A DNA stretch of 64,000 nt from Candidatus Latescibacterota bacterium (GTDB lineage Bacteria > Latescibacterota > UBA2968 > GCA-2709665), in contig CBDCOX010000002.1 in NCBI GenBank assembly GCA_965219995.1, positions 1,551,397-1,615,396 of the forward strand, given 5' to 3'. Positions 23,484 through 63,183 of the stretch are shown here, piece by piece (positions within the stretch are counted from its first letter, which is position 1; every line of letters starts with the position of its first letter). The notes below the pieces were generated by a model. The model ran no database searches, was not told where the DNA came from, and saw only the letters and a program-made list of their open reading frames with translations. Position numbers and translations under genes: made by a program.

Positions 23484-23577
23484 GGATAACGCGGTGACGG
23501 TTAACGAACCGATGCGGATTTCCATAGGCCAAGGTGCCCGACGAATGGTGCAGCGCGGCACCGAACACCTGTTTGAC
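23484..23577 (-). repeat. family A attC-like imperfect palindrome (A10)
   Basis: Minus strand: GTCAAAC-AGGTG-...-CGTTAACC-GTCACCGC-GTTATCC; begins 6 nt after the Nudix stop, ends 25 nt before the cupin ATG. Confidence 0.55.
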
Positions 23578-23583
23578 TAAGCT

Positions 23584-24024
23584 TTACTTACGTGCCTCCA
23601 TCGACTCGATCAGCAAGTCAATCTTGTCGTCGTAACCGGCAACGAGCTTTGGAAGTGCCCTGACATCGGCCCAAAAGAAATCGAACGGATGAATGAAAGA
23701 TCCGTCCTCCGAATGCTCACCGTGACGCCACGTTTCTGCCGTTGGTCCCACCAAAGACAGATGAGAAAACCAGCGGTACTGTAGTTCATCGCTCCCACAG
23801 TCCCGCATATCCCGGGTGTCCTGCGCCAGAAAACGTACAAATCTGATCCGCGATAATCCCGTTTCCTCCTTTGCTTCTCGCAGCACCGCATCCCGGGGAT
23901 TCTCCCCCGGCTCGATCGTACCGGCGGGCACCTGAATGCCAGCATCAGGCGCCCCGGGTTGCGTAAAGAGGAGCAGGCGGAGCTGAAAGGTAATATAGGC
24001 GAAAGCTCTGTGACGGATTTTCAT
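23584..24024 (-). CDS. Nudix hydrolase
   Basis: Nudix box GTIEPGENPRDAVLREAKEETGL; ATG 24024 (MKIRHRAFAYIT) matches the start of the paralogue at 31361. Confidence 0.9.
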   Translation of the reverse strand: MKIRHRAFAYITFQLRLLLFTQPGAPDAGIQVPAGTIEPGENPRDAVLREAKEETGLSRIRFVRFLAQDTRDMRDCGSDELQYRWFSHLSLVGPTAETWRHGEHSEDGSFIHPFDFFWADVRALPKLVAGYDDKIDLLIESMEARK

Positions 24025-24166
24025 CGGCGTTGGGGTTGGGGAGACCCGTGTTTCACAAGTCCTGTAACATCGTCGGCACCCCCGTTGCCGGAAGTGCCGT
24101 GTCAATCGGTGAGGAGATTTGTCAGTTTAGCCAAGGGTCAGGAACCAGACATTGCCCTTGGTTTTC

Positions 24167-24472
24167 TCATTCATTTCCTGCTTGTGCTTCTGACCAACGC
24201 GTGGCCATTCTCCTCAATTCTTCCTCATGGTCCGGCCAATCGTGAAGCGTGGCAGGATCGAAGTCAGCGCCATTAGGCCAGAAGAGAGTATGTACCTCAG
24301 AGTCAATACGCACCTGATTAAAGAGTACTTCATCCGTCAGAGGTCCGAACAACTCGCCCTTAAGAACTGGACGAAAATCAATGACCTGAGTCGTTTTATC
24401 GTTGAATCTGACATGGATCCGATGAGGCCCAACAATCTTAAATTCAACGACTTTATAGATTGGATGACTCAC
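24167..24472 (-). CDS. DUF2442 domain protein
   Basis: 101-aa ORF; VVEFKIVGPHRIHVRFNDKTTQVIDFRPVLKGELFGPL fits the DUF2442 pattern. Confidence 0.65.
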   Translation of the reverse strand: MSHPIYKVVEFKIVGPHRIHVRFNDKTTQVIDFRPVLKGELFGPLTDEVLFNQVRIDSEVHTLFWPNGADFDPATLHDWPDHEEELRRMATRWSEAQAGNE

Positions 24473-24763
24473 TCCATTCTCCCTTACAAAGGGATCTTAT
24501 CGGTAACATCCCGCGCGAAATGTACCGAATTCTGCATTGGCAGGCAAAATCCAAATTCGTAGGGTTGCGAGGTTCTTCTGGTCCTCAGAGCTTCTCGAAT
24601 ACGCCGTTCATACCTCCATGTCGTTAGACTTCCTCGCGGACTGCAAAACCTAGAAGAAGGTCAGAGGACGGGTCCGTTACCTCGAACCCTGGGGCACGTT
24701 GTCACCAGTGTACGCTACTTCGGTTGGGGGACGGTATGTATCGGGTTGGCTGATTCTCGCCTT

Positions 24764-25790
24764 TCAATCTATGCCTTCGATTGCAGCCTCACCCATACGA
24801 ATCGCCGTATCCGGGAGCGCGAGTATCCGGTCTTCCAGGGCCCAGGTCGCCCGATTAGGCGAATTCGGTCCCCACTTCCGGTGGAGTTGGGAGAGACGCC
24901 TGGCATAGTAGGCGGCAAAGATGAACGGGAGTGCGGTACGTTCATCTTCGGAAGGATGTCGTACTGAGAAGTACCCCTCCACGAACCGCTGCATTTCCTC
25001 ATCGGTAAGCTGTCGACCCACGGTCCCCATCAGCCATTGCATCCGTACCATCACGACGTCTTCGAGCGCCGGAGCGAAGTGAGCCGAGTTGAAGTCGGTG
25101 AATCGGATTTCGCCCGAAGGGGAAGCAATCGTGTTCCAGCTTCTCACGTCTCCGCGGCAGAAGAGCCACCGGACATCCATTTTATCCGGCATGCCGTTCA
25201 ACTGTGCTCGAAGCCGGGTAACAGCATCCGCCATGTCCAAGGAAAACGTCGTCCTCTCGCAATACTCGAGCGCCTCGGAGATGTACGTCCGCGCATCTTT
25301 GACTTCTGAACTGCAGGCTGGAAAGTCTTCGCTCGCATCGTGAACCCGTGCGAGAGCCTCCCCCACGTCGGCGAGCGTATCGACGCGGTCTACGACCTCT
25401 CCTTCAAGGAAGCTCTCGACCGATATCACCAGGTCTCGAACGGACTTGCAAGCGCCTCCCATCCGTGGTCAGGCGGATGTCGGGGCACGGCGCGCCGCGA
25501 CAGGCAAGGTGTCGTACGAACGCCACGATGGTTTTGGGATGGGTCGCGCAGTCCCACCCCGGATTTGCGAGAAACACAACGCGTCCGTGCCGCAAGCTGT
25601 CGCAAAAGAAGACACACCGGGAATTCGCCCTGCGGACGCTGGTTACCTCCAGATCCCAGAATCGCTTGCAGAGATCCGTGATTTCCCCCTGATCAGGCAG
25701 CGGCCCCGTTTCGTCTCTGGATCTGGGATAGCGTGCATCCATTGGTTTTCCCGGGCCGGGTCCCGGCCTTAACGGCGCATTGCCGCTCAC
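24764..25790 (-). pseudogene. APH-like phosphotransferase, frameshifted
   Basis: N-lobe ORF 25404..25790 (..VFLANPGWDCATHPKTIVAFVRHL..IRLTTDG) and C-lobe ORF 24764..25462 (..RWLFCRGDVRSWN..RFTDFNSAHF) overlap in different frames around 25440-25460 (GATGGGAGGCGC). Confidence 0.6.
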
Positions 25791-25849
25791 GTTCCCCCGG
25801 GCGACGACCTGCCGAAGCGCAGCTTAGAAATGTCGGTACGACGGCGCCT

Positions 25850-26848
25850 CTAGCCTTCAACGCCGCGTCCGTAGACCGTGCGAATTACGTCCTCGATGTC
25901 GGGCTCCTGGACGGACACGTCGCGCACCCGATAGTGGGCCGAAAGCTCCGCGATGAGTGCCGACGCAGACACCTGGCTCCTCGCAAAGCGGATGCGGGCG
26001 ACATTGTTGCGACGTTCGAGAATCTCTGCGTTGGGATGCGCGAAGCCACTCAGCGGCTCTCCGGCGCCTGGATCGCATTCCACGATCAGATAACGGTGCG
26101 GGGTGATCGAGTCGACGAGCGTGGCCAGTGGTCCGTCTTCGATGATGCGTCCCTGGTTGATGATGATGAGTCGCTCGCAGAGCTCCTCCACGTCGTCCAG
26201 GTCGTGCGTGGTGAGCAGCACGGTGGTGCGCCGGCGCCGGTTGATGTCGCGGATGAATGCCCGGATCGCAGCTTTCACCTCGATGTCCATGCCTATCGTG
26301 GGCTCGTCGAGAAACAGGATATCCGGCGCGTGCAGCATGGAACCGGCCAACTCCCCGCGCATGCGTTGCCCCAGGGACAACTGCCGCACCGGTGTGTCGA
26401 GGAGGTTGCGGATGCCGAGAACCTCGCAGAGCTCTGCCAGGCTACGCTCGAAGTCGTCGTCGGCAATGCGGTAGATCCGCTTGAAAAGCTCGTAGGATTC
26501 GCCCAGGCGAAGGTCCCAGTTCAGTTGGCTGCGCTGACCGAACACGGCGCCAATGCGCTGTACGACCGCCCGCCGTTGCCTCTGGGGCGACAGGCCGACG
26601 ACGGAGACGCGCCCGGACGTGGGATAGAGGATTCCGGAGAGCATCTTGATCGTCGTCGACTTCCCCGCGCCGTTGGGACCGATGAATCCGACCAGTTCGC
26701 CCGGCTGAATCGCGAAGCTCACGTCACGCACCGCGTGCACCTCACGCCGGTTCGGCCGAAACAAGCCCTTCACCGCACCGGCCAGTCCCTTTTCCTTCCC
26801 GGTCACACGGAAGGTCTTGCAAACCTTCTCCAACTCTATATGGGTCAT
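25850..26848 (-). CDS. ABC transporter ATP-binding protein
   Basis: Walker A GFIGPNGAGKSTT, signature LSLGQRMR, Walker B ILFLDEPT. Confidence 0.9.
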   Translation of the reverse strand: MTHIELEKVCKTFRVTGKEKGLAGAVKGLFRPNRREVHAVRDVSFAIQPGELVGFIGPNGAGKSTTIKMLSGILYPTSGRVSVVGLSPQRQRRAVVQRIGAVFGQRSQLNWDLRLGESYELFKRIYRIADDDFERSLAELCEVLGIRNLLDTPVRQLSLGQRMRGELAGSMLHAPDILFLDEPTIGMDIEVKAAIRAFIRDINRRRRTTVLLTTHDLDDVEELCERLIIINQGRIIEDGPLATLVDSITPHRYLIVECDPGAGEPLSGFAHPNAEILERRNNVARIRFARSQVSASALIAELSAHYRVRDVSVQEPDIEDVIRTVYGRGVEG

Positions 26849-26851
26849 AAA

Positions 26852-27667
26852 CTAAGATCCCGCGCTTTCGTAGCGGCGAAGGCCGGCGGCAAAGACGGCC
26901 AGCGCCAGGGCGAGCATGGCGACACCCACTGCGGGGGTCCACAGTGCCACGTCGAGGGGCAGAGAAGTGTTCGCACTCTGGCCGAGGAAGTCGCAGGCGG
27001 GGTAGAACCCGATGAAGCCGAGGGGCAGTACGAAGGTCAATAGCGCCTGCAGGGGCCACGGGTACACGGTCAGTGGGTAGAAGGTGCCGCGCGCCATCAG
27101 TTCCATGCTGGCGTCCACGAGGGGCTGGCTTCGCATGGTCCAGAACGCGATGGAGCTGATGAGAGTGAGGTTGGACCAGTAGATCAGGGTCCCGCCGGCA
27201 ATGACGAGGAGCACCTCGGCGACGTGCAGCGGTGTCCAGACAAACCCGGACAACCGGGCCCCGTAGAGGAAGTAGCCCGCGCCGATGCCCAGATGCACGA
27301 GACCGACCACATTGATTCGATGGCAGGAAAAGTGGAATGTGATCTCCAGGGGTCTGAGAAGCATCAGGTCGAACTCGCCGCGCGTGACAAAGCGATCGAT
27401 CTGCCGCGACTGAAATGACAGGATGGACATGACGCCACGGCTCATCAGGCTCAGCCCATACAGAAAAGCGAGCTGTGGGAAGGTCCATCCCGAAAGCGGC
27501 TGGAACCGGTCGACCAATACCTTGAGGGCAACGCCAATCCAGATGTAGTTGAAGCCCAGTCCAAGGCAGATGCTCAGCAGCGAGAACGGATACTCCAACG
27601 CCCGCTGAATCGACAAACGGCCATACAGAGCTCCAACGGACAAGTGATGACGCACGTTTGCGATCAT
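26852..27667 (-). CDS. ABC-2 type transporter permease
   Basis: 271-aa polytopic membrane ORF, 3-nt gap to the ATPase gene. Confidence 0.7.
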   Translation of the reverse strand: MIANVRHHLSVGALYGRLSIQRALEYPFSLLSICLGLGFNYIWIGVALKVLVDRFQPLSGWTFPQLAFLYGLSLMSRGVMSILSFQSRQIDRFVTRGEFDLMLLRPLEITFHFSCHRINVVGLVHLGIGAGYFLYGARLSGFVWTPLHVAEVLLVIAGGTLIYWSNLTLISSIAFWTMRSQPLVDASMELMARGTFYPLTVYPWPLQALLTFVLPLGFIGFYPACDFLGQSANTSLPLDVALWTPAVGVAMLALALAVFAAGLRRYESAGS

Positions 27668-27675
27668 GGGCTACC

Positions 27676-28467
27676 CTATCCTCCCTGCACGAAGACCCGC
27701 CGCTGAGCGCGCATCCAGACGAGACCCGCGAGCAGGGCGAAGACCAGAACCCAGAGCGCCTGCACGGAGAGGACGTGGACAACCTCTGCGGCAGAGACGC
27801 GACCAATGTAGATCTCCAGCGGCGCCTGGAACGTGTACTGGAAGGGCATCCACCGCGATGCATCGGCGATGAAGTCGGGGAACAGCCACATGGGCACCAA
27901 TCGTCCCGACAGGGCGAAGACGAGGCTGGTCTTTACTGAACTCACGTCCCCAAAGTCGGTGACCCAAAACGCCGTCATGCCAACGAGGACGCTAAGCAGC
28001 CACAGCAGCAGGAAGCTCAGCGCACAGCTCGGCAGAAACAGCAACCACGCTCCCATCCCCGCCGGCAGCGGCGGAGCCACAAAGAGGAGCGAGATGGCCA
28101 GCAGGGGCATGGCGAACTGCGTGACTGCCGCCAGCGAACGCCCCACGTCTTCGGTCAGCCAGTACCAAACGAGATTCACCGGTCGGATCAGATCGAGCGC
28201 GATCTCACCTGCGCGTATCTTACTAAAGAGCACGTTGTCGATGCTGACAATGAAGCATGCGTTCATCAACACGGCGACGACGGCATAGGTGACCATCTGC
28301 GCCTCGGTGACCCCGGCGACCTGGTCGATACCGCGATACGCGGTGCGCCAGAGGAAGACGGAGCCGAGGAGGAAGAACAGGTTCCGTCCAATAGAGGACA
28401 GATACTCGAAGCGGTAGGCCAGCGCGTTCAGCAGCTGGAGCTTCAGCAAGTAGGGGTACAGGTTCAT
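27676..28467 (-). CDS. ABC-2 type transporter permease
   Basis: 263-aa polytopic membrane ORF, 8-nt gap to the second permease. Confidence 0.7.
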   Translation of the reverse strand: MNLYPYLLKLQLLNALAYRFEYLSSIGRNLFFLLGSVFLWRTAYRGIDQVAGVTEAQMVTYAVVAVLMNACFIVSIDNVLFSKIRAGEIALDLIRPVNLVWYWLTEDVGRSLAAVTQFAMPLLAISLLFVAPPLPAGMGAWLLFLPSCALSFLLLWLLSVLVGMTAFWVTDFGDVSSVKTSLVFALSGRLVPMWLFPDFIADASRWMPFQYTFQAPLEIYIGRVSAAEVVHVLSVQALWVLVFALLAGLVWMRAQRRVFVQGG

Positions 28468-28479
28468 GGACGGTTAATT

Positions 28480-28515
28480 TTCTGTCCCGGAAACTGGTTG
28501 CGTGAATTCAGTTGA
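28480..28515. repeat. solo, inverted end fragment of MITE-1
   Basis: TTCTGTCCCGGAAACTGGTTGCGTGAATTCAGTTG matches the reverse complement of the MITE-1 right end (TTCTGTCCCGGAAATAAGTTGCCTAAATTCGACCG). Confidence 0.5.
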
Positions 28516-28573
28516 GCAGTATCCGGTAAGTCCGGAACCACGAACGTGCCCTCGTCGTCTCCCGGGCCAACCC

Positions 28574-29182
28574 TCACAGGATCTCCTTGCCGAAGTCGGC
28601 GTAGGTCCCCGCGGCGGAAAGCCTGATCGGGGCGTTGATTCCGTCCAGTTCGGTGGCCACGGAACCAAGTGCTGCGAAATCAGGGATGGTCCACACAGCC
28701 AGTCCGCCGGGTTCGGGTGCCAGCATCCCGATTCTCTGGACGAGGAGATTGAGAGTGAACTCAGGATGTTGTTCTGCGCGGCTTTCGTAGAAACACCTGA
28801 CGGCATCCGCGGTGCCGCGGGCATCGAAAAACTCGGCGTAGTAGGTGCCGTTGCGGGCCGGGACCGGTTCGAGCAGCGGAGTGTAGCACCCGGCAACGTC
28901 GATCCGCGCGACCTGAAAGAACGGAAGTTCCAGGTCGTCCGCCTCGCCGCTGCGAAAGATCCGGTCCCACGCGTCGATCCTTTCAAGGCCGGCGTTGCGC
29001 GTGTGCCAGACCGTCATGTAGCCCGGATCGGGCCCCAATCGCCAGGTGCGGCCGACGGACAGAACAAGCTCGTCCTCATACCCGCTGTCCCACCCCTCCT
29101 GCCCCTGTGCGGCCTGCGAGCGAAACGTCTCCGGATCGACGCCGGGCAGACGGCTGATGTACTCGATGTATACAAGTCCCAT
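28574..29182 (-). CDS. hypothetical protein, two similar halves
   Basis: 202-aa ORF between the Gfo/Idh/MocA gene and the ABC-2 genes; two ~100-aa halves, possibly ferredoxin-like/dimeric alpha-beta barrel; no family recognised. Confidence 0.55.
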   Translation of the reverse strand: MGLVYIEYISRLPGVDPETFRSQAAQGQEGWDSGYEDELVLSVGRTWRLGPDPGYMTVWHTRNAGLERIDAWDRIFRSGEADDLELPFFQVARIDVAGCYTPLLEPVPARNGTYYAEFFDARGTADAVRCFYESRAEQHPEFTLNLLVQRIGMLAPEPGGLAVWTIPDFAALGSVATELDGINAPIRLSAAGTYADFGKEIL

Positions 29183-29203
29183 CGTGTGTGTTGTCCTGTT
29201 GCC

Positions 29204-30256
29204 TCACGGCCTGGCCACAGCGACCTCTTTCCCGGACGCCGCCGAGGCATAAAGCGCGTCCATGAGTCGCTGAATTCGCACGATCTCCCTGCCCGATACG
29301 GGAGAAGCCTCACCCTGACGGACGGCACGCAGGAATTCGACGATCAGCGGCCTCATATCGTAGTCGCACGGCTTAACGTCGGGGGTCTCCTCACGCCACG
29401 ATCGTCCATCGTCAGTCCAGATTCGAAGTGGTGAAATAGACGCGGCACCGCGGTCGCCGAGAAGGGTCCAGCCTTCGTGTCTGTCAGAAGGCGCCTGAAG
29501 AAAATTCGCTTCCACAGCCAGGATGGTGTTCCCAGACAACCGAACGAAGCCCGCGCCGAAGTCCTCGAAGTCCGGATCGAGCGACGCCGGGTGGATGTGA
29601 TCTTGCATGGGTCCGGCCGCCATCGGGAAATTGGAAACCCGCTGATGGCAGAATGCGCTGGCAGTGAGCGGTTCGGGGTTGCCAAGCAGCCAGAGCACGA
29701 GGTCGAGGTTGTGAATCGTCCAGTGTGCGAGAACGCCTCCGCCGCACGATCCACGCGACCGGTGCGCCATCGCCGGCAGTCCGCGGGCACACCCTCCCCA
29801 CGTTCGAACGGCGTGTACGTGACCGAGTACGCCGTCTGCGATCCGGTCTCTCAGATACCGGGACTCGTCCCAGGTCCGGTATTGGAAACAGATGCTCAGC
29901 AGTCGATTGTTTGTTTCGGCGGCATGGATCATGTCCCGTGCCTCGTCCGCATTCATCGCCACGGGCTTTTCGCACAGGACATGGCATCCCGCCTCCAGGC
30001 ACATCACCGCGAGGTCTCGATGACTCGAGGGCAGCGTCGCAATGCTCACGACGTCGGGCCTGGTCCTTTCGAGCATCTCTTCCGCATCCAGAAATCCGGC
30101 GACTTCAAACTGTTTTCCGGCCCGCGCCACCCGTTCGGGTACCAAATCGCACACGCCTACAAGCGAACAGACTCCGGTCTCTTCCGCCTCCCGGTAGGCT
30201 GGCAGATGTTGTGCGGTCGCGATCTGGCCGCACCCGATCACCGCGACTTTAGTCAT
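29204..30256 (-). CDS. Gfo/Idh/MocA family oxidoreductase
   Basis: N-terminal Rossmann KVAVIGCGQIATAQHLPAY, CEKPVAMN motif. Confidence 0.9.
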   Translation of the reverse strand: MTKVAVIGCGQIATAQHLPAYREAEETGVCSLVGVCDLVPERVARAGKQFEVAGFLDAEEMLERTRPDVVSIATLPSSHRDLAVMCLEAGCHVLCEKPVAMNADEARDMIHAAETNNRLLSICFQYRTWDESRYLRDRIADGVLGHVHAVRTWGGCARGLPAMAHRSRGSCGGGVLAHWTIHNLDLVLWLLGNPEPLTASAFCHQRVSNFPMAAGPMQDHIHPASLDPDFEDFGAGFVRLSGNTILAVEANFLQAPSDRHEGWTLLGDRGAASISPLRIWTDDGRSWREETPDVKPCDYDMRPLIVEFLRAVRQGEASPVSGREIVRIQRLMDALYASAASGKEVAVARP

Positions 30257-30274
30257 GAGCCCCTCGCAGCAGTA

Positions 30275-30315
30275 GGCTAAACTTCACGCCGGATCGCAAC
30301 ACCGATGCGTTGTGC
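30275..30315 (-). repeat. collapsed remnant of a family A element (A9)
   Basis: GGCTAAAC-TTCACGCC-GGATCGCAACACCGATGC-GTTGTGC aligns with both arms of A2 (GTCTAAC-GTCTCGCC-GGTTTGCG ... CGCAACACCGTGCT-GTTAGAC) with the centre missing. Confidence 0.4.
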
Positions 30316-30498
30316 GCCATCGCTCGGGCGTTCGAACCGCCCATCGTCAACGACTCGACGATTCATGGAGCCGCGCCAGTCACGTCGAAGCTCTTAACGG
30401 GACCAACGTTTAGCGCACATCATTGATGATTGTATTGGGTTTTGGCTCATTCACTTCCTGTAAACGACATCTACCGGGCGTGTTGATGAAAACTCTCA

Positions 30499-30675
30499 TT
30501 AGACGGCAAAGGGCGCTTTGGTTGGTTTGCGACGTGGAAATGACACGGGCTTCTGGGACAATCGGGCTTGCCGCTTTTGAATATCTTCATAAATAGCATC
30601 AATATCGTGATGAAACTTAGCTGCGTATTGCTCACGGAGCTTTCGTGTTTCTTCTACAATCGGATCTTTCCACAT
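30499..30675 (-). CDS. small 58-aa ORF, possible orphan antitoxin-like protein
   Basis: MWKDPIVEETRKLREQYAAKFHHDIDAIYEDIQKRQARLSQKPVSFPRRKPTKAPFAV; below the 60-aa track cutoff; 3 nt downstream of the PIN-like fragment. Confidence 0.35.
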   Translation of the reverse strand: MWKDPIVEETRKLREQYAAKFHHDIDAIYEDIQKRQARLSQKPVSFPRRKPTKAPFAV

Positions 30676-30678
30676 GAT

Positions 30679-30921
30679 TCAACCCTCCATCAGTTCCTGA
30701 GGTGTGCAGATGATAGGCGGTTCAAAGCCTTGTTGAAAACAGATCTCTTCTATGCGCGGTCTCAAGGCCGCATTTGCAATGTGCGTGCAAATCCAGGTGA
30801 GCAAATAATCCATGCCGTTTACCGCTGCAACTGCGATATGGTAGGTACCCCGAGACCCGGCGAGGGGCAGCCGCGGGATATGGCGAAACAGACGCGCCAG
30901 CGCGCAACAGGAGGATTGCAC
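30679..30921 (-). pseudogene. C-terminal fragment of a PIN-like toxin
   Basis: ..YHIAVAAVNGMDYLLTWICTHIANAALRPRIEEICFQQGFEPPIICTPQEL resembles C-termini of PIN-like TA toxins as I recall them; the N-terminal half is absent and the Nudix gene abuts. Confidence 0.3.
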
Positions 30922-31361
30922 TACCTGGCCGCCTCCATGGACGCTACCAGCAAGTCAATCTTGTCGTCGTAGTTGGCAACGAGTTCCGGAAGTGAACTGA
31001 CGTCGGCCCAAAAGAACTCGAATGGATGGATGACGGTTCCGTCCTCCGCATGTTCTCCGTGGCGCCATGTTTCTTCCGTCGGCCCTTCCACAGACAGATG
31101 AAAGAACCAGCGAACCTGCAGTTCATCGCTGCCACAGTCCCGCATGTCCCGCGTATCCCGGCCCAGGAACTGTTCAAATTTCAGCCCGGTTAATCCCGTC
31201 TCCTCCCTTGCTTCACGCATCACGGCATCCCGAGGACTCTCTCCTGGCTCAATCGTACCCGCCGGGACCTGAATGCCTGCATCGGGCGCGCCGGGTTGCG
31301 TAAAGAGAAGCAGCCGGCTCCCGCTGGTTATATAGGCGTAAGCTCTGTGGCGCGTCTTCAT
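30921..31361 (-). CDS. Nudix hydrolase (paralogue of 23584..24024)
   Basis: Nudix box GTIEPGESPRDAVMREAREETGL; co-linear with the 23.6-kb copy over the full length. Confidence 0.9.
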   Translation of the reverse strand: MKTRHRAYAYITSGSRLLLFTQPGAPDAGIQVPAGTIEPGESPRDAVMREAREETGLTGLKFEQFLGRDTRDMRDCGSDELQVRWFFHLSVEGPTEETWRHGEHAEDGTVIHPFEFFWADVSSLPELVANYDDKIDLLVASMEAAR

Positions 31362-51323: not shown

Positions 51324-51339
51324 GACGTGCGTAAAGCAT

Positions 51340-54835: not shown

Positions 54836-54959
54836 AGTGGACCTCCGCACCGCCTGACTTGTGATTCTGCGGAGAAAGTTCGGCATATTCCATTCGTAGC
54901 CGATCCCCGAGTCGGCGAAGCGACGAGTCCCGCAGATAAGTCCCGCAACGGGCGCATGC

Positions 54960-56336
54960 CTACCTGCTGAACGCGTCGGGCCTGCTGGATTCCGAGGGCC
55001 AGTACCCGTCGCGGCTCGGGTGCCAGCGCTTGCCGCACAGGTCGGAGATCACGCTCCATTCGGGGGCGCTCAGATCAGGGTCCGGCTGGAACAGGAAGCG
55101 CTGCAGGCCGGCCCGCTCGGAGGCGGTCAGGATGCCGTGCAGGTCGCGGGCGGTCATGGGCTCGCCCCCGTGCGGACGGCGCCCCGTCGATACCCAGGCG
55201 ATCACCTTGTTCACATCCCCGATGGCCTCCAGCGCTCGGCGCGTCTCGTTGTACACCAGCTCCGAGAAGAACTCCTCGGGGAACCCCAGTTCCATGTCCG
55301 CCAGGGTCTGCACCCCGGGAAGCTCCAGCCCCAGGAAGGCCTTGACCACGGCGAAGCCGTCTGCCTCCAACAGGGTCGGGTTCCAGTCCAGGACCTGCTG
55401 CACCCAGCGGGCCATGGTGCCGTAGAGGCCGTCATTCCCGCGGTGCCAGAAGTAGTGCTTGGGGAAGACGTAGTCGAAGTACTCCGCCATCTCGCCAAAT
55501 TCGTGCCCGGTCAGTGACGAGAAAGCGGCGGTGCGCGGAATGCCCCCCAGCTCCACCTTCCCTCCCACTCTCTGCATCTGCGCGTGCACGGCGTGCATGA
55601 ACCCCCGCGCCGCTTCGCGGCGGGCGCGCAGCCAGTACAGGGCATCCTCGTTCAGGTCGAACAGGTTCAGTGCCCCCAGCATGCCGCCGGACGCGTGGTA
55701 GCGCACCAGATCCGGAGTCAGGTTGTGGAAACGCTCGTTCAGGTGCGCCATGCCGCGGGCGACGCGCTCCACATCGGCGCCGATGGCTTCCAGGCGGTGC
55801 CGCATGCGACCGTCCAGTTCCAGTAGGGCCTGACCCCGATGGAAGGCAAGTTCGTAGAAGGTCTCACCGGGCTGGTCCAGGATGACGCCGTGGGCCTGGG
55901 GATAGGCACTGGCCAGGTCGTGCACCCCGGCGGCCACCTCGATGGCCCCGAAAGGGTCCTCCTCCTCGGCCAGGCCGCTGGTGGTACCCTGGCCCCGCTG
56001 GTAGAGCAGCCGGAGCCCGTCTCTGGAGTCGAAGATCATGATGTGCCAGCCCCGGGAGGCGGCGTTGTCGAGGAGCGCGTGGAGCTGCTTCTCCCTCTCG
56101 GGGGTGCGGGCCGTTTCCGGGGGCGGCTTGATGCCGAACGCGGCGTACACCTTTGGGTCCGCCGCAAACGAGGGGGTGAGGGTGTCCCCCCACAACGGCA
56201 TGCCGGCCTCGTTCCTGAGCCACATCCGTCCCACCACGATGCCGCCCACCCCTCCCGCCTCCCACGCGTCGAAGATGCGCGGATAGTCGTCCAGCCAGCG
56301 CTCCAGGGGATTGTGCACGAAGATCCAGGGTACCAT
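54960..56336 (-). CDS. conserved hypothetical protein (458 aa), paralogue of 61622..62935
   Basis: Co-linear with the 437-aa ORF (..FDAWE.GGV.G..VGRM.., FPKHY.WHRG.DG.YGTM.RWV, VIAWVSTGRRPHGG.PM.ARDL); possibly TIM-barrel-like, no family recognised. Confidence 0.65.
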   Translation of the reverse strand: MVPWIFVHNPLERWLDDYPRIFDAWEAGGVGGIVVGRMWLRNEAGMPLWGDTLTPSFAADPKVYAAFGIKPPPETARTPEREKQLHALLDNAASRGWHIMIFDSRDGLRLLYQRGQGTTSGLAEEEDPFGAIEVAAGVHDLASAYPQAHGVILDQPGETFYELAFHRGQALLELDGRMRHRLEAIGADVERVARGMAHLNERFHNLTPDLVRYHASGGMLGALNLFDLNEDALYWLRARREAARGFMHAVHAQMQRVGGKVELGGIPRTAAFSSLTGHEFGEMAEYFDYVFPKHYFWHRGNDGLYGTMARWVQQVLDWNPTLLEADGFAVVKAFLGLELPGVQTLADMELGFPEEFFSELVYNETRRALEAIGDVNKVIAWVSTGRRPHGGEPMTARDLHGILTASERAGLQRFLFQPDPDLSAPEWSVISDLCGKRWHPSRDGYWPSESSRPDAFSR

Positions 56337-56456
56337 CGCGTCACCTCTCTCTGGGGTTACCCCAGTTTAGTGGACGGTTCCTTAACTGCACATTCAATGA
56401 GCATCCACAGCCACTTCGGTCTTCGCATGCAACTACGGAATCTCCTTTAAGAAATG

Positions 56457-56752
56457 CCCTGTCAGGCCGGTGCTCCGCGCCAGAAATCGTTGTACGCCGC
56501 CAGCGGCCCGTCCCCGCGCGGCCCGGTAGCCAGGTCGTGAGCTTCCGGGTACACGGTCTGGTATCGGACGGTCTGAACCCGATGCGCCCATCGTGGTCTT
56601 CCAACCGCGTCCACCGGCCTCGACGCGGGTCGTAGCGCCACAGGTCGTTCAATGAGCCCTGGCCGGATGCAGAAGTTCCCACTTCATCGTTGACCTCCGA
56701 ACGGTGTGACTTGTGATTCTGGGGTGAAAGTCCGGCGAATTCCATTGGTTGC
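56457..56752 (-). pseudogene. remnant of a second Kelch gene copy with two internal deletions
   Basis: 56457-56532 matches 52146-52222, 56529-56667 matches 54541-54680, and 56668-56752 matches 54815-54900 including the ATG. The junctions sit at AGCCAG and CTGG.CGGA microhomologies. Confidence 0.75.
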
Positions 56753-56807
56753 CAAAAACCCGATACAGTTTATTCGCGGCGGATGATTGTTGAACCCACA
56801 ATTGGCT

Positions 56808-58313
56808 TCAGGACGCATAAAGAGCAAACAGCCTGGCGCGGTCCAGGTACACTTTGACCTTGACCCCTCCTCGTGCCTGCGAGACCATCTTCTCTTCGAG
56901 CCCACCCACATTAACTCCGACTGCGCCCGGCGGATCGCTTTTCCATTGTACCCGGTACTCCGTATCATTCGCCGAGAAGGGTATGCAGTCTTCTTTGCCA
57001 AAACCCGGCACGACCCGGTCAAACGGATCGACGATCTCCACTCTCAGCGACCCGCCTGTCGCATCGGCGTTGATCCACAATGCATTGGCCTCGATACTCA
57101 GCGGGACCGTGGTCACGACCCCCTGCGCCTCCGTCTTCAGACAGACCAGCCGGTCCTTTTCGATCTTTGCCAGATTGATTCCCCGCCGGGATTCTTCGCC
57201 GTAGCGCGTCCCCTCGCCGTGCAATTCGTTTGAGCAGCTGTGATAGACCCAGATTTCATCGCCGCGCACAAACGGGGCATGGGACGGATAGACACTTCCA
57301 CTGTCGTGGCTGCCGCGGGGGCCGCATTCCAGAATCGGTTCGCGGTTGCCGGCCCGATGCCAGGTCCGGCCGTTCTTCGAGTAGGTCAATTGGACGTCCA
57401 TCCGGTTCATCCATTCGGGCATCCAATCTTCGATCCGGTTCCGGGCGATCCACCCCTCGTGGAGCGTATGAAACACGGACAGGAAGCCGATCCGAAAGCC
57501 GCGATACGCCAGCGAACTCATGCCGTAAAACTCCTGGTCCTGCGGCGGATCGTACTCATCGGGCGCGACGATGATCTTGCGCGGGGTCCAGTTTTCGAAA
57601 TCATCACTCTCGGCCATGCAAATGATGCGCACGTTAGGCCGTCCCCGAAGATAAACGACGTAGCGGTGAATTTTCGCGTCCCAATAAGCGACCAGGTGGG
57701 TATCCGAGCCCTGTGGAATGACCGGGTTGAGCCAGCGCTGGGGCACGTCCCAATGAATCCCGTCGGCAGAATACGCCACACATACCGGCTGCACAATGCC
57801 GGCGAATATCATGTCTCCGCTCTGGAACATAAAGAGCATCTTGTAGCGCCTGGCCGGGTCTGTTTCGATAGGGTCTTTCATGACTCCTGTCCCGGCCCCC
57901 CACCTCAGAAAGGGGAAGACCAGGTTATTCTCTTTGCTGCCGCCATCCTCGACGAGGTTGAGGATGGGTTTTTCCCAGTGGATGCCGTCCCTGGACACGG
58001 CGTAGGCCAGCCCGTCCGCCGCTTCGCCGCGCGCTTCGCTCAATCTTCGGCTCACGCCGTACCACATCTTGAAGATGTCTTCGTCGTCGTCGTACAGGAC
58101 GTTGACGTAGCCCCCGATCAGCCACTCCTCTTCCCAGGCCCGATCCTTCTCAATCAACGGTTGTTGCGAGACCTTCTTTGCGGGTACGACCCATTGCACG
58201 ACGCTGTCGAGACTTTCGACAAACGTATTGTCAATGAATAGGTAGGCCGCTTTCTCGTCCGTCATTGGTCTCTCCGTGTATTGAATAACTCCCTGATCTG
58301 CGCGAACGAGCAA
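56808..58313 (-). CDS. putative beta-propeller glycoside-hydrolase-like protein
   Basis: 501-aa ORF; repeated aromatic/Asp-rich blades (MWYGV.., AYSADGIHW, MAESDDFENW, YSKNGRTWH, IWVYHS) like GH32/43/130-type five-bladed propellers; family not secure. Confidence 0.45.
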   Translation of the reverse strand: MLVRADQGVIQYTERPMTDEKAAYLFIDNTFVESLDSVVQWVVPAKKVSQQPLIEKDRAWEEEWLIGGYVNVLYDDDEDIFKMWYGVSRRLSEARGEAADGLAYAVSRDGIHWEKPILNLVEDGGSKENNLVFPFLRWGAGTGVMKDPIETDPARRYKMLFMFQSGDMIFAGIVQPVCVAYSADGIHWDVPQRWLNPVIPQGSDTHLVAYWDAKIHRYVVYLRGRPNVRIICMAESDDFENWTPRKIIVAPDEYDPPQDQEFYGMSSLAYRGFRIGFLSVFHTLHEGWIARNRIEDWMPEWMNRMDVQLTYSKNGRTWHRAGNREPILECGPRGSHDSGSVYPSHAPFVRGDEIWVYHSCSNELHGEGTRYGEESRRGINLAKIEKDRLVCLKTEAQGVVTTVPLSIEANALWINADATGGSLRVEIVDPFDRVVPGFGKEDCIPFSANDTEYRVQWKSDPPGAVGVNVGGLEEKMVSQARGGVKVKVYLDRARLFALYAS

Positions 58314-58443
58314 AGCTTACAATGAGACCGAGAGGTGAATCCACTCGCCGTGATGCGATCAGGATGGAGTGGCTATTGTCTCTTGTGCGCAATTTTCCGG
58401 GTTGGAGTGTTGGGTTGCGGCCGATTCCTCGCTCTTACACAAC

Positions 58444-59319
58444 CTATATCTCAACAGTCGTAAGCTCGTCAGGACGCACGATACAACCGCTATATCCATT
58501 CCCATGGTAGCCCCGGCGGAGCCTGCCGACGATGTCCTCACTGCGCGGCGAACCGCAGTGGATGACCACGACCCTCGATATTCCAGCTTCATTAGCGATG
58601 TCAACGACCTCTGATATGTCCGCGCTGACGCCCCGGATCGGGTGCGAAGCATCTTCGTCATTCTCTTTGAAATTGCGCATGGAGAGCCCCGTAACGAATG
58701 TATCAACCCCCCTGGCCAATGGCCTCAGTTCGGGACAGTCCGCTGCATCGCACAGGAAGAGCACGCTGCCGCTATCCGTATCGATCCGGTACGCCAGCTC
58801 GGTCAGGTAAGGCTCGACGTGAGGAACCTGTACAGCCGTCGCCTTCCAACCTTTGCCCTCGACAACCGCTCCTGAACTGATATCGGATACATCGACCTTC
58901 ATGCCCGGACGGGGAAGCGTTCCGCCTCTCCCCACGTGCCCGTGGTGGCTGATGTGGTGTTTTCGACGCGCAACGATGTCGGGAAGGAAGGCGCCGTCCT
59001 TGCCAAAAAGGCGATCGACGAATTTGAAAGTCGGAGGCGGACCAAAGACTCTGAGGCGAGGAAGATCGCCGGGGTCGAGATCGAACCGTAGCAAGGCAAA
59101 GCACGGGAAATCAACGATATGATCCGAATGATGGTGAGTCAGGAAAATCGAATTCACCTGTGTAGGGCTCATTCCCATGCGTGCCATCTTGTAGGTTGTG
59201 CCGGGGCCGCAGTCAACCATGATACGATCGTCACCGATCTCGAGAATGCAGGAACACCCGTAGCGTTCACCCATACGGCTGGGACGAGGACCACCATTTC
59301 CGAGAATGTGTAGCTTCAT
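58444..59319 (-). CDS. MBL-fold metallo-hydrolase
   Basis: MKLHILGNGGPRPS.., metal motif FLTHHHSDH; start moved to ATG 59319. Confidence 0.8.
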   Translation of the reverse strand: MKLHILGNGGPRPSRMGERYGCSCILEIGDDRIMVDCGPGTTYKMARMGMSPTQVNSIFLTHHHSDHIVDFPCFALLRFDLDPGDLPRLRVFGPPPTFKFVDRLFGKDGAFLPDIVARRKHHISHHGHVGRGGTLPRPGMKVDVSDISSGAVVEGKGWKATAVQVPHVEPYLTELAYRIDTDSGSVLFLCDAADCPELRPLARGVDTFVTGLSMRNFKENDEDASHPIRGVSADISEVVDIANEAGISRVVVIHCGSPRSEDIVGRLRRGYHGNGYSGCIVRPDELTTVEI

Positions 59320-59420
59320 TTGGCCGTCACCGGGTAACCATTCACTTATTGTGCACTCATATTGGTCTTCTCGCCGCCAACTCTTGCTTATGACGATCAA
59401 GTCTCCCCGTTTCCCGCCTC

Positions 59421-60761
59421 TCAGCCTGCTTCGCGACGTTGACCCAGACGTAGAGCCCAGGGATCACCCAGTCGGTCAATAACCGCTTTTTCGCTCAATC
59501 CTGAATGCTTCACCACCCAATTCAATTCCTCCTCGAGTGTGATCTCGAATCCGCCAGGATCGTCCGTGCAGATTGCAAGATCCACCTCTGATTCAAGGAA
59601 TCTGTGAATCGGGTGGGCGCCGGGGTGCGGGATGCCGCCGATACGAAGATTTGAGGTCGGGCAACACTCGATCGCTGTTCCCAACCGTGCCAATTCGTCA
59701 AGCACGTACTCCTGGCGTGGGTGAATATTGGAGATTCTCGTGCTGTCATAGTGTGAGCGTACGACATCACCGGGATCCATCGTTTCCAGACGGCGGCTCT
59801 CGGATTTCAGTTCGTTTTCTTTCACGACCACACCGTACTCGGACAGTTCCTCGGCTCGATCCAGGTCATAGGCAATCTGATCGAGACGTTCCTCTACCGA
59901 TTCCCGTTCATGCGCTCCGGCGCGCCTTGCAAGTGCTGTACGAGCGTCCAGGCCCAACGCGATCGCGTGACCCAATCTTCTGACGCCCAATTCGGCGACT
60001 TCGTGACACCACCGGATTGCGCTTTCAAGCGACTTGTCAAAGTATTGTTCGCCAACGTGATATACGACATCAAGAGCCTGATCCGGTCGGGCTTCATTGT
60101 CAGTCTCCAACTGAGTCAACAATGGGGCCACATGCTTTGGTGGATTCCCTTCCTCAACGCTCGCGAAATCAACACCCACGAGTGTTTCCACCAGCTCCGG
60201 ATGTTTCTGGAGTAAATCACGGGTGAGTTTATAAGCATCCTCAGCAGCATGACGCGGTATACTCACAATGTACCTGGCCGTAAACGTTGCGTCGCTGGCC
60301 CATTGAAGAGCCCTGGCACAGAAGGAATGCCAGAACATAAACCCATCCATTCCGCTGCCGCAGCGATATTCGACGTAGCGACAGCCCTCCGCCTTGTGGC
60401 GAGCGAGCATGTGCCGAAGGAGGTCACCCTCACGATCGTTTTCACGGAGATGACTCCACACTCGCAAAAAGAACCCGTTCTTCGCCTCCCACTTCCCAAA
60501 ATCCCCTCCGTCCTCGACGGTGTACACGTAGGCTCGCCGGAGTTCTTCAAGTCCTGCAGCATCCCTTACCGCTCGATCGAATATTCCAATCGGATCCAAT
60601 GAGGTCTCGTACAGCTCATTATAGCGGTCGACAAAGCCTTCCTCGTTCCAATTAACATCGGTGTAAACGTCCTTCCCGAGATCAAAGAAGTCCTGCGTCG
60701 TATACGCACCCAGTATGTGAAGATGTAGATCTGTTGTGCTCAGATCCTTCAACGAAGGCAT
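59421..60761 (-). CDS. adenosine/AMP deaminase family amidohydrolase
   Basis: DLHLHILGAY, HVGEQY, CPTSNLRIG, ICTDDPGGF: the four metal/catalytic motifs of the A_deaminase fold. Confidence 0.7.
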   Translation of the reverse strand: MPSLKDLSTTDLHLHILGAYTTQDFFDLGKDVYTDVNWNEEGFVDRYNELYETSLDPIGIFDRAVRDAAGLEELRRAYVYTVEDGGDFGKWEAKNGFFLRVWSHLRENDREGDLLRHMLARHKAEGCRYVEYRCGSGMDGFMFWHSFCARALQWASDATFTARYIVSIPRHAAEDAYKLTRDLLQKHPELVETLVGVDFASVEEGNPPKHVAPLLTQLETDNEARPDQALDVVYHVGEQYFDKSLESAIRWCHEVAELGVRRLGHAIALGLDARTALARRAGAHERESVEERLDQIAYDLDRAEELSEYGVVVKENELKSESRRLETMDPGDVVRSHYDSTRISNIHPRQEYVLDELARLGTAIECCPTSNLRIGGIPHPGAHPIHRFLESEVDLAICTDDPGGFEITLEEELNWVVKHSGLSEKAVIDRLGDPWALRLGQRREAG

Positions 60762-60878
60762 CAGGTGCCTTTCCGAAAGCCAAAGGAATCGCGTGGGTCG
60801 TCGCGAATCGTGATTCCCTCCCAAGCTTTTCGTCCGCAACGGGAGGAATCGCGCGACAGAAACTCAATTGAAACAGCA

Positions 60879-61529
60879 CTAAGTCTGCATCAGCTCATGG
60901 ATCAGCGGAGGGACCTGGCGGATATCGGTCAGTTGCCGGAATGCGCCGGTGAAGTCCAGGCCGTGCGTGAGGCCCTGCGGTATGACGATGCAGCGCAGCC
61001 CGGCCGCCAGTGCGGCGCGCAGCCCGCGGTCCGAGTCTTCGATTACGACGCACTCTGCGGCGCGAAGGCCGTTCTTCCGCATGGCCGTGAGGTAGGGCTC
61101 GGGATCGGGCTTGGAATTCCGGTATTCTTCGCGCAGGAGCGTGAAATCGATGCAGTCCAGCAGGCCGGTGCCGGCGTGGATGATCTCAAAGTGCTCCCGC
61201 CGCGAACTGGTGACGATGCCCATGCGCACCGTGCCGTGGAGTTCGCGCAGCACCTGGCGGGCGCCGTCGATGACGGGTACGCCGGCGCGCAAGAGTTCGG
61301 TGTAGCGGGCGTTTCGCCTGATGCGGGCAGGTTCCAGCGCCTGTTCGTCTATGCCGTGTTCGGCGCCGACCCTGTTAAAGCCGCCGCTGGCCTTGAGGAA
61401 GAACTCGATGAAACGGGCTTCGCTCAGGTGCACGCCGAGGGGTTCCAGGGTTTCGCGGCAGGCCTGGTAGTACAGGCCTTCGGTGTCGACCAGAACGCCG
61501 TCGTTGTCCCAGAGAATGGCTTTCAGCAT
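60879..61529 (-). CDS. HAD-superfamily hydrolase (beta-phosphoglucomutase-like subfamily)
   Basis: Motif I ILWDNDGVLVDTE, motif IV IEDSDRGLRAALAAG. Confidence 0.85.
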   Translation of the reverse strand: MLKAILWDNDGVLVDTEGLYYQACRETLEPLGVHLSEARFIEFFLKASGGFNRVGAEHGIDEQALEPARIRRNARYTELLRAGVPVIDGARQVLRELHGTVRMGIVTSSRREHFEIIHAGTGLLDCIDFTLLREEYRNSKPDPEPYLTAMRKNGLRAAECVVIEDSDRGLRAALAAGLRCIVIPQGLTHGLDFTGAFRQLTDIRQVPPLIHELMQT

Positions 61530-61621
61530 AGCGCCTTATATCCTTTCCACTGCGCGGAAGTCGAAGCAGGCCTTCGTTCGCGCCCGCGGCAAACCCTCCC
61601 GCAACGAGTCGAAGATCCTGC

Positions 61622-62935
61622 TCATATCCGGCCCTCTTCGGGTACCTCGCGCCCGCCGTCCCAGAAGCCTGGCTTGTCGGTCGCCGACGGCCAGTACCCG
61701 TCGGCGTCTTCATCCCATTGGTTTCCGCACATCGACGAGATGATGGTCCATTCCGCGGCCCCGAAATCCGGCTCGGGATGGTACAGGAAGCGCTTCAACC
61801 CCGCCTCGCGAGAAGCATTCAGGATGCCGTAGAGGTCGCGCGCCTGCATCGGGTCGCCCCCGTGGGGGCGGCGCCCGGTGGACACCCAGGCGATCACCTT
61901 GTCGGGATCACCTACGGCCGCCAGGGCCCGCCGGGTCTCGTTGTAGACCACCCTGGAGAAGAATTCGTCGGGGAAACCCATCTCCATGTCCATCAGCGAG
62001 TTGACGCCGGGCAGTTCGATGCCCAACAGCGCCTTCACGACGGCGAAACACTCCGCCTCGCTCAGGGACGGATTCCACTTTCGCAACCGTCGTACCCAGC
62101 GGGACATGGTTCCGTACATGCCGTCCATGCCGCGGTGCCAATAATAGTGCTTCGGAAAGATATAGTCGAAATACTCCGCCATCTGACTGTAATTCTGTCC
62201 GGTGAGCGATGACCATGCCGGGGCCCGCGGGATGCCGCCCAGCTCCACCTTGCGATCGACGGCGTCGACCTGTTGCCGCATGTACTGCCAGTCGAAGCGC
62301 GAGCGCTCCTGCCGCTTGCGCAGCCAGTAGAGCACGTCCTCGTTGACGTCGAACAGGAGCATTGCCCCCAGCATCCCCCCGTCGGCGTGGTACCGAACCA
62401 TTTCCGGCGTCAGATTGTGCAGACGCTCCCGAAAGTGGGTGATGCCGCGCTGGATTCGATCCATCTCGGCGCCGACCTGGGCGAAGCGGGCCTCCTCGCC
62501 CGGACGGATCTCCAGGAGCTCGCCCCCATGGTGGAACGCCAACTCGTAGTGATTTTCGCCCGGACCGTCGACAATGACGCCGTGCACCTGCGGAAAGGCG
62601 TTCATCTGGTCCTGCACGTGTGCGGTCGGGCCGCCTCCGGCGAAGATCAGGATTCGCCAGCCCCGTTCCGCGGCGTTGTCCAGCATTGCGCGCAGCTTTT
62701 TCTCTTTTGAGACGTCGCGCGGACGCTGCTCCGGGACTTCCGCCCCCAGGGCCTCGTACACCTTCGGGTCGGGCGCCCAAGCGGGAATGGTCGTGCCATC
62801 CTCCTGGAGGAACGTCATGCGGCCGACGGCCAGACCGCGCACGCCGCCATCCTCCCAGGCGTCGAACCGCTCCTCGAACCCGTCGAGCCAGTGTTCGAAC
62901 GGGCTGTCACTGCAGGTGAATACCCAGAGTTTCAT
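61622..62935 (-). CDS. conserved hypothetical protein (437 aa), paralogue of 54960..56336
   Basis: See 54960..56336; shared blocks along the whole length. Confidence 0.65.
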   Translation of the reverse strand: MKLWVFTCSDSPFEHWLDGFEERFDAWEDGGVRGLAVGRMTFLQEDGTTIPAWAPDPKVYEALGAEVPEQRPRDVSKEKKLRAMLDNAAERGWRILIFAGGGPTAHVQDQMNAFPQVHGVIVDGPGENHYELAFHHGGELLEIRPGEEARFAQVGAEMDRIQRGITHFRERLHNLTPEMVRYHADGGMLGAMLLFDVNEDVLYWLRKRQERSRFDWQYMRQQVDAVDRKVELGGIPRAPAWSSLTGQNYSQMAEYFDYIFPKHYYWHRGMDGMYGTMSRWVRRLRKWNPSLSEAECFAVVKALLGIELPGVNSLMDMEMGFPDEFFSRVVYNETRRALAAVGDPDKVIAWVSTGRRPHGGDPMQARDLYGILNASREAGLKRFLYHPEPDFGAAEWTIISSMCGNQWDEDADGYWPSATDKPGFWDGGREVPEEGRI

Positions 62936-63089
62936 TATTCCCTCCTTTGGGGTGGCAGGGACGATTCACGTTCACGTTCCCGCCGTGCGCAAAGAGAACA
63001 GTTCGTGTGGGAGGGCTTTCCATCTGAATCTCTGTCCACGATGGGAATCAATAGACCAATCACACTCCAAATACTCAGGCTGCGATTTC

Positions 63090-63183
63090 ATACGACGTTT
63101 CGCCGGTTTGCGAACACCAGACGAGGGATGCCCGAAGGGTCAAGGCGCGAACAGCTCCGCAGCGCAACACCGCACCGTTACAA
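63090..63183 (-). repeat. family A attC-like imperfect palindrome (A3)
   Basis: Minus strand: TTGTAAC-GGTGC-GGTGTTGCG-...-CGCAAACC-GGCGAAAC-GTCGTAT. Confidence 0.6.

Follow-up and report, generated by a model that had tools for sequence, protein, structure and literature searches.

A 64-kb stretch of DNA from a Candidatus Latescibacterota bacterium (contig CBDCOX010000002.1, positions 1,551,397 to 1,615,396; the whole stretch is called the window here) carries a long run of unrelated accessory genes on one strand, some of them separated by similar imperfect palindromes. The question raised by this locus is whether the palindromes, termed family A, are attC recombination sites and the genes are integron cassettes, as an earlier note had proposed for the part between 23.4 and 63.2 kb. 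The covariation within the family, a geometry like that of class 1 attC sites, the uniform orientation of the copies and the junctions at G/TT (the slash marks the crossover) supported that proposal. We consider it very probable that the window is a section of a chromosomal integron-type gene cassette array of Latescibacterota. The note had left the choice between a CALIN (cluster of attC sites lacking an integron integrase) and a part of a large chromosomal integron, and this was the right level of claim, as the strict term integron is unproven with no integrase found.

Family A was first represented by a profile built from six clear copies, with which an nhmmer search of the window recovered those six and one half copy, all minus-strand and intergenic. 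Related loci (L008, L020, etc.) were fetched by scans of a genome collection and of metagenomes, and a covariance model, R1, was built from 49 copies taken both from the window and from related genomes. R1 identified nine copies at E <= 0.003 and one half copy between 23.4 and 63.2 kb, all intergenic and on the gene strand. There was no R1 match at E < 1 on the plus strand of the window, and no family-A match to R1 in positions 1-23000. As the R1 copies were significant and confined to the minus strand, chance is a very poor explanation of the family, whose orientation strictly follows that of the genes; the shared orientation and intergenic placement had both been described correctly from the sequence.

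The comparisons that in our view provide the strongest evidence for the attC/cassette reading are those of the boundaries of shared cassettes. A cassette of ~860 nt is 94% identical between two species, at 4467-5325 in L008 (OZ244619.1) and at 4249-3387 in L020 (an accession beginning CBDCNM). The homology begins at G/TTATGTGCC, immediately next to an upstream site that differs between the two loci, and stops at the ACG/TTA of the cassette's own site, with unrelated flanks. Similarly, the window has two copies of an ANT(2'')-like nucleotidyltransferase cassette whose start, CG/TTAGCGGAC, was found next to three unrelated upstream sequences, namely a family-A site (51232 in the window), a different hairpin-type site (L019) and a sequence outside the family (42931 in the window, and L026). 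In the first of these cases, the cassette downstream of the family-A site starts exactly at G/TTAGCGGAC. The last is a cassette junction without a family-A site (42896..42931, minus strand), where the nucleotidyltransferase cassette begins A/TTAGCGGAC in the window and G/TTAGCGGAC in L026. The same behavior at G/TT was repeated in the pairs L050/L077 and L067/L006 and between two copies within L049.

Close relatives of the window (87-97% identity in shared segments) differ by the presence or absence of whole cassettes beside the sites. L033 lacks the DNA of window positions 39493-40618 and 42244-45240, and has a complete site where the window has a half site at 39469. In its best-conserved shared segments, L079 is 95-97% identical to the window. 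It has an extra 4.6 kb (SAICAR synthase, LamG and sulfotransferase genes and a site) between the equivalent of the 63090 site and a gene for a 437-aa protein, as well as an additional Metallophos gene. Where L079 has the 4.6 kb, the window keeps a 95-nt remnant and a half site, indicating that the window lost that DNA. Cassette-level polymorphism at G/TT, which had been suggested as a check, was seen both within the window and between genomes. The evidence for the crossover is comparative rather than biochemical, and one junction, on the R'' side, is contrary to it.

The internal structure of the family was examined in the full-length alignment of the 49 copies. The layout was nnnTAAC, a 5-nt spacer, GGT(G)TTGCG or covarying alternatives, a two-hairpin centre, a complementary L', a 7-8-nt spacer and GTTAnnn. 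The box layout that had been read from the window (R'', 5 nt, GGT(G)TTGCG, centre, CGCAAACC, spacer, GTTnnnn) was thus borne out, with several of the window boxes degenerate. Pairing of the R and L stems and the two central hairpins was found in 79.7% of alignment cells, versus about 36% (range 30-39%) in controls in which the 3' partner had been slid. Two-sided changes occurred in 129 cells versus 61 in shuffles, none of the 500 shuffles being as high. Compensatory changes were present at seven of nine L-stem pairs (e.g., GGTTTGCG/CGCAAACC, CACTTGCG/CGCAAGTG and CCGTGCCCG/CGGGCACGG). Conservation exceeds 90% for each of the inner R boxes, TAAC and GTTA, with standard pairing at the four inner R positions in 44-47 of the 49 copies. 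The outer three R pairs formed in only about half of the copies, which is expected if TTRRRY of R' is already part of the next cassette.

Comparison with class 1 integrons gave a second line of evidence. Twelve class 1 attC sites were taken from plasmid integrons (aadA1, aadA2, aadB, blaVIM-2, aacA4, arr-3, dfrA5, etc.), and 11 were used to train a covariance model, R3. In these sites, a 7-nt R'' is separated by a 5-nt spacer from an L'' made up of 3 bp, a bulge at position 4 and a further 5-6 bp; L' follows, and a spacer of 5-6 nt precedes R' GTTAnnn. The 5' part of family A is built in the same way, down to where the bulge lies, the G/TT crossover is also shared, and the central CGCTTCGCG motif of the class 1 sites recurs in the family. 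The centre of family A differs in being a conserved three-way junction. R3 produced nine matches at E < 10 in eight of the related loci, all of them family-A sites on the correct strand and in the correct register. The scores were weak (10-16 bits, E 0.3-9.5), and we regard this result as modest independent support for the attC reading.

The sites in the window, all on the minus strand, vary considerably in their state of preservation. At the right end, the site at 63074..63197 (R1 74.8 bits, E 4.7e-15) has R'' TTGTAAC, L'' GGTGTTGCG with a bulged G, L' CGCAAACC and a degenerate R', GTCGTAT; its orthologue in L079 (5149-5272) has an intact R', GTTATCT. Just upstream of the 437-aa gene, at approximately 62955..62992, lies the remnant of an attC 3' half, TGCGCACGGCGGGAAC-GTGAACG, which is homologous to the L'-R' half of the L079 attC at 9871-9983. 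The site at 51216..51337 (81.2 bits, E 1.6e-16) has R'' TTCTAAC and R' GTTAGCG. It is followed by a 5' half at 50500..50560 (ATGTAAC-AGCCT-GTTGCTGCTGC), whose 3' half is unrecognisable and on which R1 was silent at E <= 10; together with the end of the preceding open reading frame (ORF), this half is 79% identical to the copy at 45184. A weak site at 46103..46213 (R'' GCGTAAC; 22.9 bits, E 0.003) and a site with a divergent centre at 45149..45279 (R'' GTGTAAC, R' GTTAGCA; 36.3 bits, E 2.6e-6) come next. The highest score was that of the site at 42142..42263 (85.7 bits, E 1.6e-17), which has a degenerate R'', CGCTGAC, with R' GTTAGAC, and orthologues in L026 and L033.

Further downstream, the site at 40568..40698 (54.6 bits, E 1.9e-10) has an 11-nt insertion and degenerate L' and R' boxes (R' GATTTAT), and its R'', GTCTAAC, holds the TAA stop codon of the ORF at 40679-42127, as had been noted. 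Only L', spacer and R' are left of the half site at 39469..39605 (GGTACGCAATACGGCGCCAC-GTTGTCT; nhmmer E 0.0017, R1 E 0.06). The site at 35253..35368 (71.9 bits, E 2.1e-14) combines R'' GTATAAC with a degenerate R', GATATAT, and that at 34177..34300 (37.7 bits, E 1.3e-6; DNA fold z-score -2.1) is new relative to the first reading. The most downstream site, at 23468..23588, has R'' GTCAAAC and R' GTTATCC (32.6 bits, E 1.9e-5). Of ten copies listed in the earlier note, eight were upheld by R1 or the profile, that at 50474 proved to be the 5' half only, and that at 30275 was undetected at E <= 10; the list had missed the site at 34177-34300 and the 3' half site at 39469-39605.

Other searches of the window were less informative. 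A strict regular-expression scan for attC sites (AAC...GTT, at least 5 of 7 R pairs and at least 7 of 8 L pairs) missed the family because of its degenerate boxes, and its chance matches were equal on the plus and minus strands. A trimmed model of the R and L boxes, R2, in which the centre was replaced by GAAA, also missed true sites, the centres of 50-70 nt being unbridged. Rfam at gathering thresholds gave no matches in the window, an uninformative result, as Rfam is not known to hold an attC family. Junctions such as 42896-43043, 4282-4334, 12748-12788 and 14425-14483 may hold attC sites of other sequence families, and L019 has an attC-type site of another, hairpin-type family at its nucleotidyltransferase junction.

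Analyses of relatives showed the family to be widespread and arranged in arrays. The scan of the genome collection with the family-A pattern gave 31 loci, of which 16 were on chromosomes of Candidatus Latescibacterota metagenome-assembled genomes (MAGs) and one was in a Poribacteria MAG, the rest looking like chance matches. Latescibacterota is a phylum of the FCB group, and homologues of one window protein were labelled Latescibacteria or Latescibacterota by their sources. The metagenome scan added 27 contigs with family A, and a scan of viral contigs gave one chance match only. In total, there were 133 copies in 41 sequences (~315 kb). The family can occur at several distant places on a chromosome, for example at 1.04, 2.01-2.03 and 2.75 Mb in OZ242318.1. 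By the profile, related 8-kb loci have up to 10 copies each, always on a single strand and 0.7-1.5 kb apart, and their ORF maps alternate ORF and site, with occasional two-gene units. At the most crowded of these loci there is a site every 0.8-1 kb; L085 and L086, which are close relatives, are patchy like the window. A three-site cluster in L020 is flanked by housekeeping-type genes. The related arrays are filled by matching families, including APH, methyltransferase, ANT(2''), cupin, ankyrin, NUDIX and GNAT genes and toxin-antitoxin (TA) pairs.

The Poribacteria locus (L021; OZ244587.1, 544001-552000) has seven family-A sites in 8 kb. Its methyltransferase cassette has 67% DNA identity to window positions 183-922, which suggests either an exchange of cassettes across phyla or a binning or labelling issue.

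Several observations weigh against the cassette-array reading. One is the lack of an integrase. An IntI1 query, 100% identical to plasmid IntI1, was run over all open frames of the window and of every fetched locus, and no integron integrase was identified in the window, as the note had stated, or in the 41 family-bearing sequences with their 133 copies. The window's array has its head outside the window, past coordinate 64000. In L079, at least 4.5 kb more of the array, with three more sites, follows the equivalent of the window's right end, and there was no integrase in those 4.5 kb. A dense array of eleven sites in L099, preceded by a TonB-receptor gene and an MmeI-type restriction gene, has no integrase within 10 kb upstream. 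The lone tyrosine recombinase found (L052, 6546-7499), the sole IntI-like match, belongs to an IS91-type element. It was rejected as an array integrase: it is without the 24-residue integron-specific insertion, it scored 208 bits against the TIGR02249 cutoff of 265, level with an Xer model, and it overlaps an IS91-type Y2 transposase gene, and for these reasons we assigned it to an insertion sequence (IS). This pair of genes, Y2 transposase and Xer-like recombinase (L052, 5366-7499), sits at the end of a family-A array and could easily be misannotated as an integron integrase.

The remaining contrary points concern the sites themselves. Three of the seven fully read R' boxes in the window are without GTT (63090, 35269 and 40598) and four keep it; among the six fully read R'' boxes, one is without AAC (42158) and five keep it. 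With ~10 sites for ~47 genes, about one junction in five has a recognisable site. The sparseness of the sites and the degeneracy of several R' boxes had been raised as a caveat from the outset, and that caveat was upheld. The class 1-trained R3 found nothing in the window, and the 3' spacer is 7-8 nt in family A versus 5-6 nt in class 1. The bulged L'' base is present in only ~20% of the copies (~8-10 of 45); where present, it is at L'' position 4, as in class 1, in GGTGTTGCG-type copies that include the window sites at 42142 and 63074. The longer 3' spacer may supply other unpaired bases. Single-copy fold energies were ordinary (z -2.2 to +1.0) and not separated from those of shuffles, so that of the folding check that had been proposed, single-copy energies gave no support, covariation over 49 copies did, and the structural case rests on the latter. 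Finally, in L033 the R''/spacer side is the point at which a methyltransferase gene meets a different site body, a junction not predicted by IntI chemistry.

Three rival explanations were weighed. If the repeats were palindromes of the REP/BIME type (repetitive extragenic palindromes and bacterial interspersed mosaic elements), or terminator-like, they would act on transcripts or the nucleoid, and the gene cluster would be a flexible genomic island. Such palindromes are likewise short, GC-rich, imperfect and intergenic and occur at many places in a genome, and family A is structured and GC-rich, lies just past stop codons and occupies several chromosomal places per genome; its covariation would also fit a transcribed RNA structure, and no integrase was found. 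However, no T-run follows the stem, and the loci with two or more copies all have them on a single strand after successive ORFs, the window's plus strand being empty, in place of the mixed orientations that had been named as the sign of REP/BIME-like behavior. In family A, all sites point the same way relative to the genes, relatives have one site for each gene, and a site travels with its upstream gene in a unit bounded at G/TT; the homology between species that is so bounded, with unrelated flanks, is unexplained by a passive palindrome. The class 1-trained model, moreover, picks exactly the family-A sites. We therefore regard this explanation as highly improbable. We give hardly any credence to the idea that the repeat is a non-autonomous MITE-like element (a miniature inverted-repeat transposable element) spread through intergenic DNA. 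There are many similar copies and there is a true MITE in the same window, but family A has no terminal inverted repeats beyond the R boxes, no target duplications and a fixed position and orientation relative to the ORFs, and the blocks of homology consist of a gene and its site as one unit.

A closer relative of the cassette-array reading is that the sites are attC-like and were moved by a recombinase other than IntI (Xer-like or trans-acting), or that orphan arrays were rearranged by homologous or illegitimate recombination. No IntI was found in ~315 kb, one array start is without an integrase, there are several arrays per chromosome, the site family is in two phyla, and an Xer-like recombinase adjoins one array; the half sites and internal deletions of the window and the R''-side junction also point in this direction. 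The half sites and internal deletions are plainly the products of illegitimate or homologous events. However, the Xer-like gene was seen once, paired with an IS91 Y2 transposase, and exact G/TT junctions behind unrelated sequences point to the known IntI crossover. In addition, only small parts of each chromosome were seen, and CALINs without a nearby intI are common in bacteria with ordinary integron biology (Cury et al. 2016, PMC4889954). We consider this explanation improbable. It also seems rather unlikely to us that one attC family extends, as arrays, clusters and single cassettes, across many Latescibacterota and at least one Poribacteria genome with no canonical integrase at the heads of its arrays. 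If this were true, it would mean a common cross-phylum cassette pool, handled by one trans-acting IntI per genome or by an unrecognised recombinase.

Based on the cassette-array reading, we propose the following. Each cassette would be, or once have been, a promoter-less accessory gene with an attC-type site of ~100 nt. In single-stranded form the site would adopt a structure in which an unpaired spacer separates an R stem (TAAC/GTTA) from an L stem and the centre is a three-way junction. A tyrosine recombinase of the integron type, probably IntI to judge from the crossover position, would cut between the G and TT of the distal R', the enzyme itself not having been found, and each cassette would leave and enter the array as a unit that extends from TT to G. 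The array would now be eroding, with sites lost or halved, R boxes mutated and genes duplicated, deleted or interrupted by IS and MITE elements, and some junctions would reflect ordinary homologous or illegitimate recombination between similar repeats. The window may be the distal part of a large sedentary integron whose intI would lie past coordinate 64000 by more than 4.5 kb. Alternatively, it may be an orphan array that is acted on in trans, if it is acted on at all. GC skew was negative in 30 of the 32 2-kb bins of the window (1-64000). If the skew reflects replication, the plus strand, which is the attC bottom strand, would be on the leading-strand template, as has been reported for large Vibrio arrays; coding-strand bias could give an identical signal.

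The ORF map placed nearly all plausible genes on the minus strand across the entire window (176 to 62935). The earlier note had counted about 70 consecutive minus-strand ORFs in the array; the strand was confirmed, and the number suits the whole window, with ~47 genes within 23.4-63.2 kb. As determined by the ORF map, Pfam and paralogy, these ~47 co-oriented genes form an accessory block at 23087..62935. The families assigned by Pfam include cupin, NUDIX (two), APH-like (four), ABC transporter, GFO/IDH/MocA, OCD, flavodoxin-like (two), ankyrin, ANT(2'')-like nucleotidyltransferase (two), an ECF sigma-GNAT fusion, methyltransferase, DUF4268, DUF4365, MBL-fold, adenosine deaminase-like, HAD and Kelch (a split and a deleted copy). 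The block also has transglutaminase-like genes (one full, one internally deleted) and two paralogues of 437 and 458 aa. The heterogeneity that had been noted (methyltransferase, APH, NUDIX, cupin, nucleotidyltransferase, GNAT, etc.) was thus confirmed by Pfam, and self-comparison of the window bore out the presence of duplicated and decayed genes. As regards TA modules, an inverted higBA at 63185-64000 was verified and no other was; ten small ORFs of the window that were checked contained no TA family.

The window array is sparse and eroded. The forms that erosion has taken include degenerate R boxes, the half sites at ~39.5 and 62.97 kb, the internally deleted transglutaminase-like gene and the deleted Kelch copy. 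In addition, a 1552-bp insertion sequence (52866..54417, minus strand), recognised by its DDE_Tnp_1_4 transposase (459 aa; Pfam) and its junctions, with the target duplication CTAAC, splits a Kelch-repeat gene that is intact in L019 (6729-7930). The second Kelch copy, at 56341-56745, is internally deleted. At the right end, the inverted higB-higA TA cassette (63185..64000) is on the plus strand and was identified by synteny with L079 genes carrying PF05015 and PF01381; its higA runs off the window. Its higB is split by a MITE-like insertion at 63391-63552, for which L079 (97% identical) has the empty site. This non-coding element has a further copy at 9991-10201 and terminal inverted repeats GTGTyyyGTCCC ... 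GGGACAGAACAC.

Some genes within the block may not be typical cassettes. A three-gene ABC-2 transporter operon (25850-28467), with a higher G+C content of ~62%, lies inside the array as a multi-gene unit, unlike the typical single-gene cassettes, and is kept in the relative L085. The paralogues at 54960-56336 (458 aa) and 61622-62935 (437 aa) have ~72% DNA identity, a GC3 of 0.83-0.90 and no Pfam family. Their homologues are widespread in Latescibacterota, mostly in ordinary, non-array contexts, and these two are probably resident genes caught in or beside the array rather than cassettes. The 437-aa gene was rejected as a marker of arrays, as distant homologues sit in ordinary DNA of mixed orientation.

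The first 23 kb of the window have the same gene families on the same strand and no family-A site. This region may be an older, fully eroded part of the array or else an ordinary flexible region; the methyltransferase gene at 176-979 is homologous to a proper cassette of the Poribacteria locus. An intergenic module of ~280 nt occurs there in three copies (7453-7728, 16482-16788 and 17726-18009), with conserved ends ACTTACATGGATGGACAGGAT ... TTGAAAAACAACCnGTTATAnAnCAAAACCAnnGGTTTTC. Each copy is upstream of a minus-strand gene, none was found in ~100 related loci, and the module may be a promoter or regulatory module. It was rejected as a second class of attC, being restricted to the window and having no R/L layout.

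The best-known large chromosomal cassette arrays are those of Vibrio, Xanthomonas and a few other Proteobacteria. With sedentary chromosomal integrons such as the Vibrio cholerae superintegron and its VCR sites, the array described here shares long co-oriented runs of mostly single-gene, unrelated accessory cassettes, a fairly homogeneous, species- or lineage-specific attC family of ~100-120 nt with a structured variable centre, an inverted TA cassette, duplicated and decayed cassettes, and cassette-level differences between close relatives. Unlike the Vibrio superintegron, no intI, attI or Pc was found, relatives have several separate arrays per chromosome, about one window junction in five keeps a site, and the host is Latescibacterota, with the site family also in a Poribacteria MAG.

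A CALIN is defined by the presence of two or more attC sites that share a strand and are spaced by less than 4 kb, in the absence of an integron integrase, and most CALINs are without a nearby intI remnant (Cury et al. 2016, PMC4889954). The window is like them in its co-oriented sites within 4 kb, the lack of an integrase and of a neighbouring intI pseudogene, and its cassettes of mostly unknown or accessory function. Because no integrase is in view, its clusters are operationally of the CALIN type. By our own family model (CALINs being defined by the attC model of IntegronFinder), two clusters are within the spacing, 34177 with 35253, and 39469, 40568, 42142, 45149 and 46103; the sites at 23468, 51216 and 63074 stand alone at the 4-kb threshold. 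In contrast to typical CALINs, which are small with heterogeneous sites, the relatives have large arrays in which the sites form one homogeneous family. We would class the window as a CALIN-like section of a chromosomal cassette array.

While the kind of element is known, it appears to have been undescribed so far in Latescibacterota; no paper among those searched linked integrons with Latescibacterota or Poribacteria. An attC family with clear covariation, common to many species of an uncultured phylum, together with natural gain and loss of cassettes between close relatives, provides a clean data set for the evolution of attC families, the decay of arrays once recombination stops and the origin of CALINs. 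The cassettes, with their many APH-like kinases, ANT(2'')- and AadA-like nucleotidyltransferases, GNATs and methyltransferases, represent an environmental reservoir of antibiotic-modifying enzyme families in cassette form.

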